This document shows, one piece after another, positions 1 through 15,417 of a stretch of 20,000 nucleotides of DNA. The stretch's first letter is position 1; each line of letters begins with the position of its first letter. Origin of the DNA: an uncultured virus (IMG/VR IMGVR_UViG_3300049571_000412) (taxonomy: Duplodnaviria > Heunggongvirae > Uroviricota > Caudoviricetes). A program made the translations under genes and the position numbers. The stretch lies in the IMG/VR virus record IMGVR_UViG_3300049571_000412; one strand, written 5' to 3'. The notes beneath the pieces are model-generated. The model saw only the letters and a program-made list of their open reading frames with translations. It ran no database searches and was not told the origin of the DNA.

Positions 1-251
1 TGCTCGCGCAGCTCGGCGACCTCGTCGGCCAGAGCTTTGGCCGACTCGACCAATGCGGCGTGCTCGGCCTTCAGGGCCTCGTAGGCCTCGGCCAACTCGG
101 CGTCGGACATCTCCTCGGCCTCTTTGACCTCAGCAATCTGGCCCAGACGGAGGAGGGACGCGTAGTTGCGCCCCTCCTCGTCCGGCACCGGCTCACCGGG
201 GGCGATCGTCCCGTCGCCCCACTTGAGGTGCTGTCGGGCGACGTAGCCCAT
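1..251 (-). CDS. Phage protein immediately after the major capsid gene, coiled-coil rich; truncated by the window edge
   Basis: Not in the ORF track. ATG at 251 overlaps the capsid stop (TGATG). Frame is open to the edge with high GC3: MGYVARQHLKWGDGTIAPGEPVPDEEGRNYASLLRLGQIAEVKEAEEMSDAELAEAYEALKAE... Confidence 0.75.
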   Translation of the reverse strand, partial: MGYVARQHLKWGDGTIAPGEPVPDEEGRNYASLLRLGQIAEVKEAEEMSDAELAEAYEALKAEHAALVESAKALADEVAELRE

Positions 252-1258
252 CAGGCGACAACGTCCTCGAAGAAGATGCCGAGCTCGGAGGCGACGACTT
301 TCTGGTCGGACGCCTCCTTGATCTGCATGACGTCGGAACTCGCGAGCCCGTCGCGGCCGCGCTGGATGGTCCCGCCGAACGCGTTGGTCTCGCCGGGGAT
401 CAGGCCAGTCCACGCGAACGTGTAGCCGCCCGAGGGCTGGTCGATCGCCGGGGCGGGCGCCGCGTAGACGAGGAGCATGTCCTTGCGGCCGACGATGAAG
501 TCGATGGCATCCGCGGCCCCCTCCTTCGCTTTGTTGATGACGCCACCCGGCACGAGGACGCGATCCACGCCGAAGAGCTCCGCGAGGAGCTCGGCGGTGA
601 CGATCCCCCGCTGGGTGTATTTGATGACGTCCTTCACCTCCGGGTGGTTTTTGATCTTCCGAAAGGTGTCGCGACCCAGGACCAGCGTGTTCGGCTCGTA
701 GCCGGTGGTGCTGGCGATTTCATCGCGGTTCTCGTCGATGAATTCGATCGGTTCCGAACCCGACTGGTCGAACTGCAGGAATTCGCCTTCGCCCGGTTCT
801 TTGGCCTTGCCTTTCAGGTCCAGGCCCCAGACCCCGGTCTTGAAGAACGCTTCGGTCCAGAGCCGGTCGTTGTGGATCATCACCTGCGTGGTGAGCAGGT
901 TGGCGGCGGCCTTGTCCGGGTCCATCGGCTGGTCCGCGTTTTTGCGCGTCCGGTCGTCGATGGTGGTCTCCAGGCCTTCCTCCTCGCAGAGATAAGTGCC
1001 CTCGGACTTATTCACCCCGGCGCTCGGCGGGCGGCCACCGAGCGGACGAGGGCCGACCTCGTCACGGAAGAAGGACCCCTTGTCCCAGATTCCGTATTTG
1101 TCCGAGGCGTTGTTGACGCCGACGATCGGGAAGACCTGTGGCGCAACGAATTTGCGCGGGTCCTGCGCCCAACCGACCGACATGTTCGTCAGCCAGCGGT
1201 CGACGTGGAGGTCCGCCGGGCCCGGCTGATCCTTGTTGATTTTCGTGACAGCGCTCAT
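251..1258 (-). CDS. Major capsid protein (335 aa)
   Basis: RBS AAGGAG. N-terminus DLHVDRWLTNMSVGW...FVAPQVFPIVGV...SDKY resembles a known siphophage capsid family. Lies after scaffold and cement genes. Confidence 0.9.
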   Translation of the reverse strand: MSAVTKINKDQPGPADLHVDRWLTNMSVGWAQDPRKFVAPQVFPIVGVNNASDKYGIWDKGSFFRDEVGPRPLGGRPPSAGVNKSEGTYLCEEEGLETTIDDRTRKNADQPMDPDKAAANLLTTQVMIHNDRLWTEAFFKTGVWGLDLKGKAKEPGEGEFLQFDQSGSEPIEFIDENRDEIASTTGYEPNTLVLGRDTFRKIKNHPEVKDVIKYTQRGIVTAELLAELFGVDRVLVPGGVINKAKEGAADAIDFIVGRKDMLLVYAAPAPAIDQPSGGYTFAWTGLIPGETNAFGGTIQRGRDGLASSDVMQIKEASDQKVVASELGIFFEDVVA

Positions 1259-1289: not shown

Positions 1290-1691
1290 CTACGCGCGCC
1301 CGGCGGTCGGGGTGGAGAGGAAACGGGCGAGCTCGCCGGCGGCGGCCTCCTCGACAGCGAGTCCGATCACGCGGGAGCCGAGGGCTTCGACTTTTTCTTC
1401 CTCGATGACGGTCGCGGTGGCGGCGACGAGCTTGCCTTCCGCACCCGCCGAGACGAGTTGTCCGGCTTTGATGTTCCCGCCGGCGACTGCCTTCGGTTCA
1501 CCGCCGTTGGCATAGGTCGCCTGCGCACCTTCGGGGGCGTTCTCCTGGAGGGAGAACGCGATGTCTCCGGCTCCGGCGAGGACGAGCTTTCCGGCTTCGT
1601 TCAGCTTGACCAGGCGGAACTGCTTCGTCGACAGGTCGGCACCCGCCGGGGCGGTCGCGAGGTGATGGGAGGCTAGGCGCTGGGTGGCCAT
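1290..1691 (-). CDS. Capsid cement/decoration protein (DUF2190-like, 133 aa)
   Basis: RBS AAGGAG. Motifs AGADLS..QFRLVKL, AGGNIKAGQLV and IGLAVEEAAAGE. Lies between scaffold and capsid. Confidence 0.8.
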   Translation of the reverse strand: MATQRLASHHLATAPAGADLSTKQFRLVKLNEAGKLVLAGAGDIAFSLQENAPEGAQATYANGGEPKAVAGGNIKAGQLVSAGAEGKLVAATATVIEEEKVEALGSRVIGLAVEEAAAGELARFLSTPTAGRA

Positions 1692-1724: not shown

Positions 1725-2690
1725 CTAACGGCGGACCTCGGCGAGGTAGGCGGCCTGCAGCTCGGGGTTTTCGTCCCCGGCCTTTTCGAGGGCCTGCTCC
1801 GGGGTGAGCGAGGAGTCGGACTTGCGGATCTCCTCGGCCTTCTGCTTGAGCTGGGCGAAGGCGTCCGCACCCGGCTCGGTGACGCCGTCGGCGCCGGCGG
1901 TCGAGAAGAGCTCGCCCTTCTCGATGCCCTCGTTGGTGGCCTTGAGCAGCGTCTCCAGGGCCTCGTAGGACTCCTTGGGCAGCTTCTCGCTGGCTTCCTT
2001 CAGGATCGGTCCGAGGTCGTCGGCTTTGGTCGGGAGCGAGTCGAAGGCCTCGGCCTTGGCGACGAACTCCTTATCGAGGCGCGCGTCGCGCTCGGCGTCT
2101 GCCTTCGCGATCGCTTCGTCCGCCTTCTTCTGGGCGGCAGCGGTGGCGTCTTCGGCCTTCTTGAGGGCGGCCTTGGCGGCCGGCGACAGGTCGGCCTTCT
2201 CCAGCTCGGCCTTCTCGGTGGCCTTCTCGATCGCGGCCTCGACCTCGGCGACGGCGTCCTTGGAGACGCCCGCCTTCTTGAGGGCGGCGACGAGCTCGGA
2301 GGCGTTCTTGGCCTCCAGCGACGGGCCCTCGGCCTCGGGCAGCTCCAGCCCTGCGGCCTTGACGACATCGGCGACGATCTCCGGGGTCAGGTCGCCCTTG
2401 TGGGTGGCGAGCAGGCGGGCGACGCCGTCCAGCGCGAGCGCGGCCTGCTCGGAGTCGGCGGCCTTCTCGACGAGGGCAGGTAGCGTGTCGGCCTTCTCGA
2501 CGGCGTCGCCGAGCTGGTCGATCAGCTCCTTGGTCAGTTTCGACATGCGGTGTCCTCCTTCGGACGGGTGATCGGAGTCGCGCTTCCACAGGTAGAAGCG
2601 CATGGGTTCGGACTGCTCGACGGCGTCACGACAGGCGGCCCTGTCGACCAGCGACACGAACTCGACGTCGAGACTCTTGAGTTGGGGCAT
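1725..2690 (-). CDS. Scaffolding protein with an N-terminal XkdF-like protease strand (321 aa; nested 273-aa form from ATG 2546)
   Basis: AAGGAGG-ATG at 2690 and a second in-frame AAGGAGG-ATG at 2546. Ala/Glu/Lys helical body with a scaffold-like C-terminus (LTPEQALEKAGDENPELQAAY). The track extension to 3095 is an Arg-rich shadow frame. Confidence 0.8.
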   Translation of the reverse strand: MPQLKSLDVEFVSLVDRAACRDAVEQSEPMRFYLWKRDSDHPSEGGHRMSKLTKELIDQLGDAVEKADTLPALVEKAADSEQAALALDGVARLLATHKGDLTPEIVADVVKAAGLELPEAEGPSLEAKNASELVAALKKAGVSKDAVAEVEAAIEKATEKAELEKADLSPAAKAALKKAEDATAAAQKKADEAIAKADAERDARLDKEFVAKAEAFDSLPTKADDLGPILKEASEKLPKESYEALETLLKATNEGIEKGELFSTAGADGVTEPGADAFAQLKQKAEEIRKSDSSLTPEQALEKAGDENPELQAAYLAEVRR

Positions 2691-2746
2691 GGGGCCTCCT
2701 TGGCTCGCGAGCGAGCCGACGGGAGTGGGATGAAGTGCATGGCGGG

Positions 2747-3721
2747 CTAGGCCGCGTCGACCCGTTCGGCGGTGCCGCCGATCGAGTAGCCGGTCAGTTC
2801 GCCCTTGACGATCTGCTGCCAGATGTCGGCGTCGGCGACGTGGCTGGCCATCACCCAGGAGCCCTTCAGGACCGGGCGGCCGTGGTATTCCATGTCGGAC
2901 GGGGCGATGAAGCTCTCGACCGGGACGGCGCCTGCGGCCTCCTCGGAATGCTGCACGTCCTGTAGGCGCGACTCGGCGAGGTAGCGGTGGGCGGCCTGTT
3001 CGATTTCCGCCGCGGTGACGATGTCGCCCTGTGAGTCGGCGACGTCCGGCTGCATAACGACGCCGTAGACGATCTGCGCCGCGTCGTCCTTCCACAGCTC
3101 GGTCGTGAAGGCCTTGTCGACCTTCTCGGTCTTCGTGGCTTTCGACGGCGCCGCGGCGGACCCGGCGTCGGCGCGCTTCTGGAAGAGGGTCTTGAGGCTG
3201 GGCATGTCGCTCCTGTCGTGGGCCTTCTTGCCGATGAGGGGGAAGTCGAGTCGTTCGCCGGCGACCACCAGGGAGAGCGCGTTGAAGGCCAGCGCCAGAT
3301 TCGGCACCTGCGGCTCGGTGTGGTCGTAGGCGAGCGTGATGTGCGGGGTGAAGCCGTGGTCGGTCGACGGCCGGAAGCCGGCGCCGGTGATCGCCTCACA
3401 CACGCACTGGCGGAACTCGGGCAGCCCGGGCACGTCGGGCGACACGTAGGTGACCGGTTCGGGCCCGGCCGTGAAGTGGCCGATCCCTGCGATCTCGCCG
3501 GTGAGCGGCGGCAGCGACGCAGCGCACCCGGCGACGACGGTGGCCAGCGCTTCGACATTGCCGAGGTCAACGGCCGCGCCGAGGAAGGCGAGCGTCAGGT
3601 GTAGCTCCTCGGCCGGTTCGCCGCCGGGCTGGGCGATCGCCTCGGCGACCTCGCGCGGCGGGTAGAGCGCGACCATCGCGCCCGTCTGCTGCTCGGCCTT
3701 GGTGAGGAAGGCCACGGTCAT
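2747..3721 (-). CDS. 2H phosphoesterase (LigT/Acb1-like fold) fused to XkdF-type (peptidase S78_2) prohead protease, 324 aa
   Basis: ATG at 3721 overlaps the upstream stop (ATGA). Two HxT motifs (LHLTLAFLG, FTPHITLAY), then XkdF motifs IVYGVVMQPD..DSQGD, DVQH, VESFIAP, KGSW and GELTGYSIGG. Confidence 0.88.
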   Translation of the reverse strand: MTVAFLTKAEQQTGAMVALYPPREVAEAIAQPGGEPAEELHLTLAFLGAAVDLGNVEALATVVAGCAASLPPLTGEIAGIGHFTAGPEPVTYVSPDVPGLPEFRQCVCEAITGAGFRPSTDHGFTPHITLAYDHTEPQVPNLALAFNALSLVVAGERLDFPLIGKKAHDRSDMPSLKTLFQKRADAGSAAAPSKATKTEKVDKAFTTELWKDDAAQIVYGVVMQPDVADSQGDIVTAAEIEQAAHRYLAESRLQDVQHSEEAAGAVPVESFIAPSDMEYHGRPVLKGSWVMASHVADADIWQQIVKGELTGYSIGGTAERVDAA

Positions 3722-4173
3722 CCGATCAGCAGCGCCAGCGCCGCGACGACCGCGATATGCCACACCTGGTCGTTCCAGATCCGCACGTCGGCGCCGATGT
3801 CCATCAGAGGGAGGTGGCTCGGGTCCGGTTGCGTCTGCCGGATCAGCTTCGACCACGCCTGCACCGGCCAGCGCGTGTCGATGATCAGGTGGGTGATGCC
3901 TATGGCGAGAGCCCCGTACCAGGGGAAGACGAGGAGCTGGGCGGCGCCGTGGATTCCGGCGTGGACATATGCCGCCGGGTGGCGATCCCACCACGGCCCT
4001 TCGCCGCGCATTGGCAGGAGGTATTCGTCGCCCGTCAGCGAGTTTTCGCTGTACACCGTGACGGCACGCGGGCGGCGCTTCATCTTGTTCACCGCCATCC
4101 ACTCGTTCTGGCCGAGCCAGTCGAAGACAAGGTGGACGACGACGCCCCAGATCAGCAGATCAGTCGCGCTCAT
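3718..4173 (-). CDS. DUF3307-family membrane protein (151 aa)
   Basis: Motifs HLVFDWLGQNEWMAVNK, HAGIH, HLIID and DQVWH with hydrophobic segments. ATGA overlaps on both sides. Confidence 0.8.
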   Translation of the reverse strand: MSATDLLIWGVVVHLVFDWLGQNEWMAVNKMKRRPRAVTVYSENSLTGDEYLLPMRGEGPWWDRHPAAYVHAGIHGAAQLLVFPWYGALAIGITHLIIDTRWPVQAWSKLIRQTQPDPSHLPLMDIGADVRIWNDQVWHIAVVAALALLIG

Positions 4174-6266
4174 GCGCCGCCTCCGAACACCGGGAGGAGC
4201 TGAAGCGTCCCCTGCGGGTGCTCCTTCGCCGCGATCTCCCGCGCCTCCTCGAAGCTGACCTTCTTGCCGTTCCGCGCTTTGCACTCGGCATCGGAGGTCG
4301 CCAACAGACCGTCCATCAGCTCAACGCCGGTCACTTCCGGGTGGGCTTCGTAGGCCGCCAGCGAGGTCAGCCGCTGCGCATTCGCCGTCTCGGTGCGGGC
4401 GATCAACTGCGACCGGTAGGCCGACCCTGCCTTGTGGAACTTCCCGGCCGGGACGTAGCTGCGGATCCGGTCGGCGGCTTCCTTCCATCCCTCCTTGGCC
4501 TCCCGCGCGTCGGCGAGGGCCTTGAAGATGGAGTCCTGCAACTGGTCTTCGATGTCGAGCATGCCGACCCGCAGGCCCCCGTCGCGGAGGATCTGCGCGC
4601 GCTTGGCGGCGGTCAGCTCCACCTCGGTCGAGCGCCCCTCGGCGCCGAGTGAGTCCTTGAAGGTGGAGATGACGCGTTCGGCGACCTTTCCGTAGTGGCC
4701 GAACCATTCACGGGCCAGCTTGCGGGCGAAGCCTGCGAGGCCGACCTGCGCGATGACGCTGCGCGCCGTGGTCCGGTCGTCGTCGGTTACCTCCTTGCGG
4801 ACGGTCTGTTCATAGGCCCGCGCCGCCTCCTCGCCGAACTCGCGCAGGGCCTCCGATGAGGTCCGCGCCAACGATCGCTCCAGCAGGTGCCCGTCGGCGA
4901 CATAGGCCCTGCCGAGCGCGGGCATGTCATCCACACCCGGCCCGGTGTCCGCCTTCTCCGCCTCCACGGCCGCCGGCGTCGGCAGGCCCGCTTCGCGGAA
5001 GAGCGCGGCGAGCAGGTCGTTGTCGGGCCAGATGACGGCACCCGAGAGCGCCATTCGTTCGAGCATCAGCGTCACCGCGTCGAGGTCCATCCGGCGGGTG
5101 GTGCCGTGGACCAGCTTGGGCGGATCCTCCACGCTGAACCCGTTCAGCTTCAGCAGGCGTGGGATCGCGTAGTTGTTCATCACCGCGGCGATGCCGTCGA
5201 GCCAGGCGTCCACGGCGGCGCCGAAGATCTGCGACTTCACATCGAGCATCGAGTAGCTGCCGACCTTGTCCTGGCCGATCAGCAGCATGTCGGCGAGGAT
5301 CGTGGTGGCGATGTCGAGTTTGTAGCGGCGGATCACCTGGTCGGTGTCGATCTGCCGTGACCCACCGGTGGTGGCGAGTTCGAACTCCCACCCCGCCGGG
5401 ATCAGCAGGCCCTCGTCCTCGTCGCGCTTCACCGTGGTGACGAGATCCTGCGCCGCATCGACGATCGCTTTGTTCGCCTCGGCCTGGAAGTCGAAGCCAT
5501 CGGGGGCCTTCAACGTCGGGATACCCGCGAGGTCGCGCTCGATCCCGATCGCCTCGATCTCTTCGATCGTCTTCTTGCGGTACCACGCGACGTAGGCGTT
5601 GCGGAGCATGGAGCGGCCTTCGGGATTGCCCTTGGTCGTCTCGGTGCGGAACAGCAGCGCCTTCTCCATCGGGATGGTCCGCAGCCCGCCGGTGGGCGGT
5701 AGTTGCTCCATCCCTTCGATGCCGCCGGTCTCATCGATCAGCCAGCGCGAGAGCGTCTCCTGCGCGCGGATCGGGAGCTTGCGCCAGCCGATCTTGCCGT
5801 CGTTGAACTTCGAGGTCGGGAGGGGGCGGCCGTCAGGGCCTTTGCCCCTGGGTTCGGGCCCTTGGCGCTTCTTGTAGACGATCTCCGACAGCTCCCAGCC
5901 GTACTGGAGCATCGTCATGACCTCGGAGATGAAGTCCTCCCAGGTGCCGGACATGTCGTCCATGCACTCCTCGACGAACTCGGCGGCGGCGGGATCGGCT
6001 CCCTCCTCCACCGTCCATTCGACGCCGCGGGCGAGCATCTTCACCGCGAAGAGCAGCGCGCCGACCGTCGCGTCGTTGTCGGCCATCTCGCGCCAGACCC
6101 TGGCGGCGCGGCCCTGGCCGGCGAGCTGGCGCAGCCACTCCTCGGCGACGAAGCCGCCGTACTGGCGCAGGCCGGTGACGCCGAGCTCGGCGAAGGCCTC
6201 AGACGGCGCCTTGTAGACCGCCTGGCGCCGCTTCTGGACGAGGGACGGCATCACGCCGTCAGCCAC
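4170..6266 (-). CDS. Portal protein (DUF935/Mu gp29-like) fused to a C-terminal MuF head-morphogenesis domain (~698 aa)
   Basis: GAGGAGG RBS before GTG 6266 (alternative ATG 6251). Portal motifs YGWELSEIVYK, GNPEGRSMLRNAY, IGIERDLAGIP. MuF motifs RSQLIARTETANA, C..RNG and EHPQG. Confidence 0.88.
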   Translation of the reverse strand: MADGVMPSLVQKRRQAVYKAPSEAFAELGVTGLRQYGGFVAEEWLRQLAGQGRAARVWREMADNDATVGALLFAVKMLARGVEWTVEEGADPAAAEFVEECMDDMSGTWEDFISEVMTMLQYGWELSEIVYKKRQGPEPRGKGPDGRPLPTSKFNDGKIGWRKLPIRAQETLSRWLIDETGGIEGMEQLPPTGGLRTIPMEKALLFRTETTKGNPEGRSMLRNAYVAWYRKKTIEEIEAIGIERDLAGIPTLKAPDGFDFQAEANKAIVDAAQDLVTTVKRDEDEGLLIPAGWEFELATTGGSRQIDTDQVIRRYKLDIATTILADMLLIGQDKVGSYSMLDVKSQIFGAAVDAWLDGIAAVMNNYAIPRLLKLNGFSVEDPPKLVHGTTRRMDLDAVTLMLERMALSGAVIWPDNDLLAALFREAGLPTPAAVEAEKADTGPGVDDMPALGRAYVADGHLLERSLARTSSEALREFGEEAARAYEQTVRKEVTDDDRTTARSVIAQVGLAGFARKLAREWFGHYGKVAERVISTFKDSLGAEGRSTEVELTAAKRAQILRDGGLRVGMLDIEDQLQDSIFKALADAREAKEGWKEAADRIRSYVPAGKFHKAGSAYRSQLIARTETANAQRLTSLAAYEAHPEVTGVELMDGLLATSDAECKARNGKKVSFEEAREIAAKEHPQGTLQLLPVFGGGA

Positions 6267-6384
6267 GTCGGGCCTCCTCGCGCTCACGTCGCGCGAGCCG
6301 CGTCCGCCGGCGCGCAGCCTTGGCCTCGTCGCGCTGATGGCGCGTGCGGTTGTCGGCGCGGGTGCGCTTGGCGTGGCGGGACAT
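6259..6384 (-). CDS. Small arginine-rich protein (41 aa, 15 Arg)
   Basis: GGAGG RBS before ATG 6384, high-GC3 codons. Sequence MSRHAKRTRADNRTRHQRDEAKAARRRTRLARREREEARRG. Confidence 0.6.
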   Translation of the reverse strand: MSRHAKRTRADNRTRHQRDEAKAARRRTRLARREREEARRG

Positions 6385-15007: not shown

Positions 15008-15051
15008 GCTTCACACGCGAGAGGTCGCTGGTTCGAAACCAGCCGTGCCCA
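15008..15051 (+). mobile_element. att core: 3' half of tRNA-Val(CAC), marking the right prophage boundary
   Basis: GC-TTCACAC-GCGAG-AGGTC-GCTGG TTCGAAA CCAGC-CGTGCCC-A. Anticodon loop, T arm and 3' acceptor strand are present. The 5' acceptor strand (GGGCACG) and D arm are absent. Confidence 0.88.
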
Positions 15052-15059
15052 TGGCCCAC

Positions 15060-15115
15060 AAACCGCATGAGAGCTGGCGATGCGCGGTTTCGAGGCTCGA
15101 CGCGGGAAGAGCCTC
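15060..15115 (+). terminator. Two hairpins just after the tRNA 3' end
   Basis: AAACCGC/GCGGTTT (15060-15066/15084-15090) and GAGGCTC/GAGCCTC (15092-15098/15109-15115). Confidence 0.4.
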
Positions 15116-15117
15116 AC

Positions 15118-15147
15118 TTGACCCCATGGGGTCATTCGTGGGGTCAA
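15118..15147. repeat. Putative integrase arm-type sites of a second element
   Basis: TGGGGTCA at 15127 and 15139 (12-bp period), plus inverted TGACCCCA at 15119. Confidence 0.6.
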
Positions 15148-15417
15148 TCAAAGGCGCAATGGCCCAGGCGAGCAGATCGCGGCCCGCTTCGACGCCGCTC
15201 AGAGAGCCAAATCCGTGACGCCGAAGTCGATCCTTCTCGGTGATGCGTCGACACGAATGCGAGAGGTCTCTGACTCGAGATCCCCAGCCAAATGCAGGCG
15301 CGAGAGCAACAGCACCCGGCGACGACCCGGCTGATCGCTTCGGCGACGCAGACCGGCCCTGGCCGCCCTCGCACTCGGGCAGAATCAGATGCGGACCCCG
15401 GTGCAAACGGTTTTCCG

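Follow-up and report, generated by a model that had tools for sequence, protein, structure and literature searches.

The question raised by this locus is how a prohead protease whose chain stops shortly after its catalytic serine could be completed, and where the strand that it lacks is encoded. The locus lies in a window of 20,000 nucleotides (the whole stretch of DNA analysed here), which forms the final 20 kb of a 73.5-kb record of an uncultured virus (IMG/VR IMGVR_UViG_3300049571_000412) originating from rhizosphere metagenomes. The element under study is a pair of minus-strand genes, namely an XkdF-type prohead protease core (2747..3205; 152 aa from an internal Shine-Dalgarno (SD) sequence and the ATG at 3205) and the scaffold gene next to it. 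The core matches PF14550 (E value 1.3e-35; 122.5 bits against a cut-off of 24) over profile positions 8-125 of 126, its gene is placed between the portal and major capsid genes as for proteases of the PF14550 type, and it gives no match at E 0.1 to the HK97-type S78 protease family PF04586. Its His86 (codon 2950-2948) and Ser141 (codon 2785-2783) are invariant across 82 aligned cores, and the frame terminates as ...GYSIGGTAERVDAA-TAG at 2747 on the minus strand, 11 residues past Ser141. The core chain is without the post-serine strand and the oxyanion loop, and a homologous motif heads the next gene.

That next open reading frame (ORF; 2690-1725, minus strand, 321 aa) lies in a different frame from the protease and begins 56 nt past its stop, beyond an intergenic gap (2691..2746, minus strand) that holds the AAGGAGG ribosome-binding site of the long form. 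The first 48 residues (2547..2690, minus strand) are present in the long form of the protein only and contain EFVSLVDRAA at residues 10-19 and RFYLWK at residues 31-36; residues 3-21 (2684-2628) comprise the putatively donated strand and loop, and residues 30-36 (2603-2583) a second conserved strand with an invariant Lys at its end. A second AAGGAGG with an ATG at 2546 (2544..2560, minus strand) opens a short form of 273 aa, the Ala/Lys/Glu-rich body of the protein (1725..2546, minus strand). The position of this ORF between the protease and the decoration and major capsid genes points to a scaffold role, its PHROG matches being to families labelled as of unknown function. The spacing from AAGGAGG to ATG is 4 nt at 2690 and 7 nt at 2546, and the two starts are 144 nt, or 48 codons, apart.

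To locate the strand systematically, all six frames were searched with a profile whose only source was 26 N-termini of fused XkdF chains. Across the 73.5-kb genome the top match of the profile was the scaffold peptide (10.4 bits, E 0.028; next match 1.8 bits), and the profile search found the strand neither in the N-terminus of the core ORF, the arrangement of the single-chain XkdF of PBSX, nor elsewhere in the genome. The peptide is thus homologous to the N-terminal strand of XkdF, and the proposal of the first-pass annotation that the missing strand sits on the N-terminus of the scaffold is borne out by a profile made from fused proteins only.

The same search was extended to relatives. In total 256 loci were gathered, with three alignment-based scans among the sources (the best 80 of 556, of 111 and of 263) and with ten of the loci being hand-picked annotated phages; together with the window they were reduced by dereplication at 80% core identity to a set of 89. 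Of the 61 loci whose ORF ends with the core, 38 (window included) have the strand on a downstream ORF according to the fused-only profile with its threshold at 10 bits, 2 have it in cis and none has it elsewhere. After one iteration, at 15 bits, the 89 loci divided into 45 with the strand on a downstream ORF, 29 with an N-terminal strand in cis and 15 without a match, counts that are circular for the loci added in the iteration. No locus had two strand copies at 15 bits, bar one cut fragment matched twice on the same peptide. Among the 15 loci without a match, four show a diverged motif by eye, in cis in HHTV-2 and on the next scaffold gene in PPSC2, P26059A and MSTV1; in two more the strand-scaffold gene lies 4.3 kb (L047) and 7.6 kb (L022) downstream, past unrelated genes (E 6e-14 and 2e-16), as found in two of the three viral records searched for a displaced scaffold, the third being an 11.8-kb fragment. 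In 80 of the 89 loci the strand is therefore present together with the core, on the same chain or in trans. Among the database matches listed, the strand is present in 0 of 54 short homologues and precedes the core in 117 of 120 long ones; a tblastn search of cultured phages with the 48-aa peptide lacked the sensitivity to add to this (3 records at E 8-10). In Curvibacter phage P26059A an endonuclease gene stands between the core and strand genes, and because the two genes may be interrupted in this way or lie kilobases apart, the strand must act in trans. The split layout is conserved across diverse phages and is not special to this one. As a separate observation, the protease and scaffold genes of a related clade of actinobacterial type (L022, L028, L047, L182, L257, L258) are separated by clusters of glycosyltransferase and sugar-epimerase genes.

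Structural modelling is in line with a chain that ends too early. The model of the core alone (mean predicted local distance difference test, pLDDT, 87) was compared with 48,161 chains and was nearest to T4 gp21 (5jbl; Z 10.8, root-mean-square deviation 2.5 over 114 residues), followed by the varicella-zoster virus (VZV) protease 1vzv (Z 5.8, residues 11-125) and, at rank 4, the human cytomegalovirus (HCMV) protease (12-137), with 8j3s (Z 4.3) standing among the top rows; the superposition on the VZV and HCMV proteases ends after the serine strand. A prohead protease without its post-serine strand, as the annotation had read the ORF, is accordingly what the fold describes. Since no strand is assigned past residue 107, the serine segment is unpaired in the core-alone model, whereas the model of L088, a natural fused XkdF, forms both of its long strands, at 3-16 and 146-157. 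Foldseek likewise ranked 5jbl first for the core (probability 0.99, E 0.023) and returned nothing at E 0.001 for either model, and a sequence search of the PDB found no solved family member for core or peptide. In the pseudorabies virus (PrV) assemblin the third triad residue, His128, is carried by strand beta6, and the loop between beta6 and beta7, past the strand with the serine, makes up the oxyanion hole (PMC4498786); T4 gp21 has structural and catalytic elements of this kind as well (PMC5694885).

When core and 48-aa peptide were modelled together with ESMFold2, the complex score was 0.70 and that of the best of three controls 0.01, on a test whose mark is attained by 116 of 157 solved pairs and by 2 of 215 mismatched pairs. 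The runs agreed in at least 77% of contacts and the partner pLDDT was at least 55. The contacts of lowest error were those of peptide residues 8-14 with core residues 55-58 and 114-119, the strands that lead to His86 and hold Ser141, which predicts a place for the peptide within the sheet, flanked by the catalytic strands, and not at its edge. The earlier expectation that the peptide would dock into the core by strand insertion is in this respect matched by the model. We consider it highly probable that the peptide binds the core.

The two starts of the scaffold gene, also put forward in the annotation, recur in relatives. In 44 of 45 split loci the strand ORF begins at a start of its own, 10-27 codons ahead of the motif. 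With five of the 45 set aside because they were cut or unanchored, an internal start (SD match of at least 6 nt, at most 30 codons past the hairpin) was found in 21 of 40 split loci, compared with 13 of 265 control windows further downstream; a formal p-value for this difference would overstate it because the loci are related. Between 2400 and 3900 of the window no promoter- or terminator-like site was found, and the RNA around the split showed no structure of note (z from -0.62 to +1.16). In virions of phage DLP3, a relative of DLP5 (the phage in which the split layout is established), only traces of protease gp3 (3 spectra) and of gp5 in the scaffold position (4 spectra) were recorded against 2709 spectra of the capsid protein (PMC7326821).

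Taken together, the reading that we prefer is one of completion in trans. Protease and scaffold genes would be translated separately; the long scaffold form would offer its N-terminal strand, and the core would insert it between the strands that bear His and Ser. This insertion would probably anchor the enzyme on the scaffold and at the same time complete the active site, the loop after the donated strand presumably forming the oxyanion hole. The pair of core and long scaffold would co-assemble with the short form into the prohead, with the long form probably a minority and the short form building most of the scaffold shell. The completed enzyme would then cut the scaffold at Lys-Ala/Ser sites, degrading it and freeing the 2H domain described below. 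Proteolysis would by this arrangement be restricted to the prohead. The probability that the strand both binds the core and is needed for protease activity is roughly 0.7.

The cleavage step is suggested by a motif in the scaffold. Together, 40 scaffolds contain 243 copies of the pattern [LIVF]-x-K-[AS], whereas shuffled versions contain 45 +/- 6, an enrichment to which helical periodicity and shared ancestry may add, and the mirrored pattern occurs 60 times against 45. The present scaffold holds 12 copies where 1.6 are expected, the terminase holds none, and one copy stands directly ahead of the protease core. The HK97 capsid protein contains FNKS at 101-104, which is its cleavage site. The motif of a hydrophobic residue, any residue, Lys and Ala/Ser is accordingly predicted from its enrichment to be a cut site, with cleavage after Lys.

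Several observations weigh against completion in trans. Only peptide residues 1-21 are confidently in contact, and the second strand, RFYLWK, is not confidently placed. The complex score indicates fit rather than binding, because halves of a split gene may pass through their likeness to the T4 gp21 and herpesvirus fold. The core alone, with its pLDDT of 87, may not need the strand for its stability. At the third-triad column, set by a weak alignment to HK97 gp4, the residue is Phe11 here and varies among relatives, being E in 23 of 44 split loci and H in 20 of 29 fused ones, and this clade has an 8-residue insertion in place of the Asn of the usual AAN motif, so that the strand brings no conserved catalytic side chain. 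An alignment with XkdF and HK97 gp4 had been called for in the first-pass annotation: the XkdF match was found, and on HK97 gp4 the end of the core falls on residues 99-118 and the peptide on 134-152 (XkdF showing the swapped order), in the right register but without significance. The peptide against HK97-type proteases likewise reached only E 0.06-0.23 with a template of 4 sequences, 2 of 42 peptide family members match PF04586 and then only at E 0.07, and a scan for diverse HK97 relatives gave near-copies only. Lastly, 9 of the 89 loci are without a located strand, some being short fragments and the rest having unrelated neighbours, and the loci are related, so that the survey counts are not independent draws.

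These points make it the main rival that the peptide is a tether and nothing more, bringing core and passenger into the prohead while the core is already active or is switched on otherwise, for instance by oligomerisation or by capsid contact; it owes that rank to a modelled core that folds well alone and to a strand without a conserved catalytic side chain. Precedents for other modes of activation exist, the activation of T4 gp21 being attributed to self-cleavage and to contact with the vertex (PMC9958956) and that of the PrV assemblin to dimerisation (PMC4498786), and the many split cores that bear N-terminal enzymes would make such a hook useful in itself. A mere hook would not, however, be expected inside the sheet between the catalytic strands, where the peptide is predicted, nor does it account for a serine segment that has no strand partner in the core-alone model, unlike in the fused XkdF model. 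We consider this alternative unlikely, yet it deserves the most attention of those weighed.

Far less probable is that the peptide has lost its link with the protease and serves the scaffold itself, in self-association or portal binding, with the core a dead or independent relic. The changed E and N of the usual strand motif in this clade and the Pfam label of 'putative' for PF14550 protease activity would agree with a relic; the invariance of His and Ser in the 82 cores, the co-occurrence of strand and core in 80 of 89 loci and the richness of the scaffold in the candidate cleavage motif would not, and no other prohead protease was found in the 73.5-kb record, which may be incomplete. The least probable of all is a single polypeptide in which a -1 ribosomal frameshift joins core, strand and scaffold as in psiM100 ORF12: it is possible on paper here because the scaffold frame is stop-free back to position 3395 with an offset that equals the -1 frame, and collinear natural forms exist, but the offsets of the 45 split loci are spread over all three frames (21, 14 and 10), no more than 14 of these loci have a scaffold frame open back into the core, the last 60 nt of the protease gene here hold no slippery heptamer, the strand ORF has its own start in nearly every split locus and a strong SD here, and other genes can intervene, so that a conserved frameshift or readthrough is rejected on the variable offsets, the few open frames and the lack of a slippery site in this phage.

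The split is also not a product of assembly. Four other IMG/VR contigs, probably of the same sample series, are identical to the window over 6.5 kb, and the protease-scaffold junction shows 0 differences in contigs from three of four public runs, one of which may itself be the source of the record, the fourth run having no coverage there; the identical junction in all these contigs rules out an assembly error as the cause.

Returning to completion in trans, the freed N-terminus of the core is where this locus carries its passenger. The first-pass annotation had begun the protease at 3205, and that ATG does have its own AGGAG; it is, however, internal to a frame that begins at ATG 3721, overlapping the upstream stop, and that encodes a 324-aa fusion of 2H phosphoesterase and protease that had been overlooked. 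The 2H domain (3206..3721, minus strand, in frame ahead of the core) matches PF13563 (E 1.3e-13) and PF02834, with HxT motifs at codons 3601 and 3343, and the same fusion was found in three other loci (L018, L021, L190) and in PHROG 14859. It is likely a passenger carried into the head, and it could be a virion-delivered anti-defence or RNA-repair enzyme; against Acb1 (PF23474), which counters the cyclic-oligonucleotide-based anti-phage signalling system, it scored 14.1 bits, below the cut-off of 27. With the internal start at 3205 the core could be made with or without its 2H passenger. In one of the five IMG/VR copies (L005:3078, window position about 3226) a 1-nt deletion in the 2H part breaks the fusion, being either an assembly error or a variant.

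Other split cores carry other enzymes in this place. Pfam matches at or over the cut-off in 42 N-terminal extensions of non-fused cores include 2H (3), uracil-DNA glycosylase (6), ChaB (5), methyltransferases (3), ligase (1) and NUDIX (1), whereas the fused XkdF forms have 43-72 residues ahead of the core in all but one of 29. Varied enzymes of this kind (uracil-DNA glycosylase, ATP-dependent ligase, adenine methylase, NUDIX, ChaB) are seen at L021, L024, L029, L096, L216, L220, L229, L243 and L247. Fusions of this sort may explain the label 'DNA methyltransferase' borne by many stand-alone cores.

Known systems offer both likenesses and contrasts. The single-chain XkdF proteins (PF14550, PHROG 3017; ORF10 of PBP180, gp58 of BMBtp14 and gp5 of 0105phi7-2, all three Bacillus phages, and gp33 of Lactococcus phage 28201) have cores that are 45-49% identical and share the strand motif and a scaffold-like tail with the window phage, but are circularly permuted in the order strand-core-scaffold, whereas here the strand is on a separate gene and the core N-terminus bears 2H. 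ORF12 of the Methanothermobacter prophage psiM100 has the same parts as here, a PF14550-like core (91.6 bits), the strand (24.1 bits) and a scaffold-like tail, but unsplit and collinear, with the core at 124-229, the strand at 252-293 and the tail after them. Split pairs as here, with a stand-alone core and a next scaffold-like gene that opens with the strand motif, occur in cultured viruses: Pakpunavirus LCK69 (gp170/gp169), Otagovirus PPSC2 (orf4/orf5), Delepquintavirus DLP5 (gp3/gp5), Vequintavirus Bas53 (gp5/gp6), Rhizobium phage RHph_TM16, Vibrio phage V-YDF132 and the archaeal virus MSTV1. The profile matches are strong in DLP5, RHph_TM16 and V-YDF132 and weak in LCK69 (E 6e-4) and Bas53 (E 0.01), and the motif is seen by eye in PPSC2 and MSTV1; these pairs differ in that their motifs are more diverged, no 2H passenger was seen in them and their records say protease, methyltransferase or hypothetical and are silent on the split. 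HK97 gp4 (PF04586), T4 gp21 and the herpesvirus assemblins have the beta-barrel fold and His-Ser order of the window core but keep the post-serine strand in the protease chain, and here the long scaffold carries the strand alone. In the hepatitis C virus NS3/NS4A and flavivirus NS2B/NS3 pairs, a serine protease is completed by a beta-strand of a partner that also anchors it; those proteases are of chymotrypsin fold and polyprotein origin and are unrelated to the window protease in sequence and fold. In herpesviruses, nested in-frame starts in UL26/UL26.5 yield the protease-scaffold and the scaffold alone (PMC4498786), and by analogy the split pair would be the two-gene equivalent of these nested genes and of single-chain XkdF.

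The annotation had also raised the possibility of an intermediate of circular permutation. The three gene orders that this would involve, collinear, split and permuted, all exist; the tree is too weak to fix their succession. Split and fused cores cluster apart in trees. In a quick tree of 39 rows (23 split, 15 fused and psiM100; 9 no-match loci, long-branch rows and a further subset left out) rooted on psiM100, the fused forms are nested inside the split ones, a nesting expected if fission was followed by re-fusion, with no starred support and a long outgroup, and the approximately unbiased test does not reject one origin for the fused form (p-AU 0.71). One permuted single chain with an EVS-type strand (L234) lies among split forms in both trees and may be an independent re-fusion, without statistical support.

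A full-text literature search, with supplements and subscription papers outside its scope and a prior remark therefore possible, returned no description of the split or of the permutation. PMC7824862 holds XkdF to be unrelated to the SH-superfamily prohead peptidases, a view that the fold search contradicts, as the core is nearest to T4 gp21. PMC10219371 describes the fused form and proposes that the scaffold is released from the C-terminus, and in the available portion of PMC11375127 on MSTV1 no mention of the split was found. The split prohead protease is a real, conserved and apparently undescribed variant of a known enzyme family.

With respect to the genomic setting, the minus-strand head module comprises the large terminase, the portal with a MuF-like domain, a DUF3307-like membrane protein, the protease ORF, the scaffold, a cement-like protein and the major capsid protein. 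A single 705-aa ORF upstream in the module (window 6287-4170, minus strand; 4170..6287) encodes both the portal and the MuF-like minor head domain, with matches to PF06074 (E 5e-33), weakly to PF04233, and to PHROG 113 and 115. The cement or decoration-like protein (1290..1691, minus strand) matches PF09956 (E 0.0048) and PHROG 673 (E 7e-13), and the major capsid protein (251..1258, minus strand) PHROG 1005 (E 1.9e-78). The nearest genome-borne relatives sit in Solirubrobacterales assemblies, which is a hint to the host only. Upstream of the packaging genes, a SigH-like sigma factor (window 13901-13302, minus strand; E 3e-45, below cut-off) is a candidate late-gene regulator. At the record end, a 1448-aa protein (window 19764-15418, minus strand) resembles the NACHT anti-phage proteins EruA (E 9e-59) and HyoA, both below cut-off, and is possibly a gene of the host flank or a prophage defence gene. 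A tRNA-remnant-like translation at about 15020-15100 of the window (ORF listings near 15011-15406) adjoins the phage genes, and this candidate tRNA remnant may mark an attachment site.

How prohead proteases enter the head and remain harmless outside it is settled for few phages, and an active-site strand that rides on the scaffold would be a simple and directly testable answer. If completion in trans is correct, one interaction would target the enzyme, set its copy number by the ratio of two ribosome-binding sites and confine proteolysis to the prohead, and the freed core N-terminus would load passengers (2H phosphoesterase, uracil-DNA glycosylase, ligase, methylase, NUDIX) into the head. The broader proposition, that two-gene prohead proteases are widespread as inactive enzymes switched on by a strand from a minority scaffold isoform, with the split a living intermediate between collinear and permuted forms, seems to us evenly balanced. 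The split layout reaches cultured phage-therapy groups and an archaeal virus, where its genes are mislabelled as methyltransferase or hypothetical, and the split and fused forms make a natural fission-fusion series for a circular permutation. The split protease thereby points to the loading of foreign proteins into phage heads and to a protease that may be switched by a peptide.

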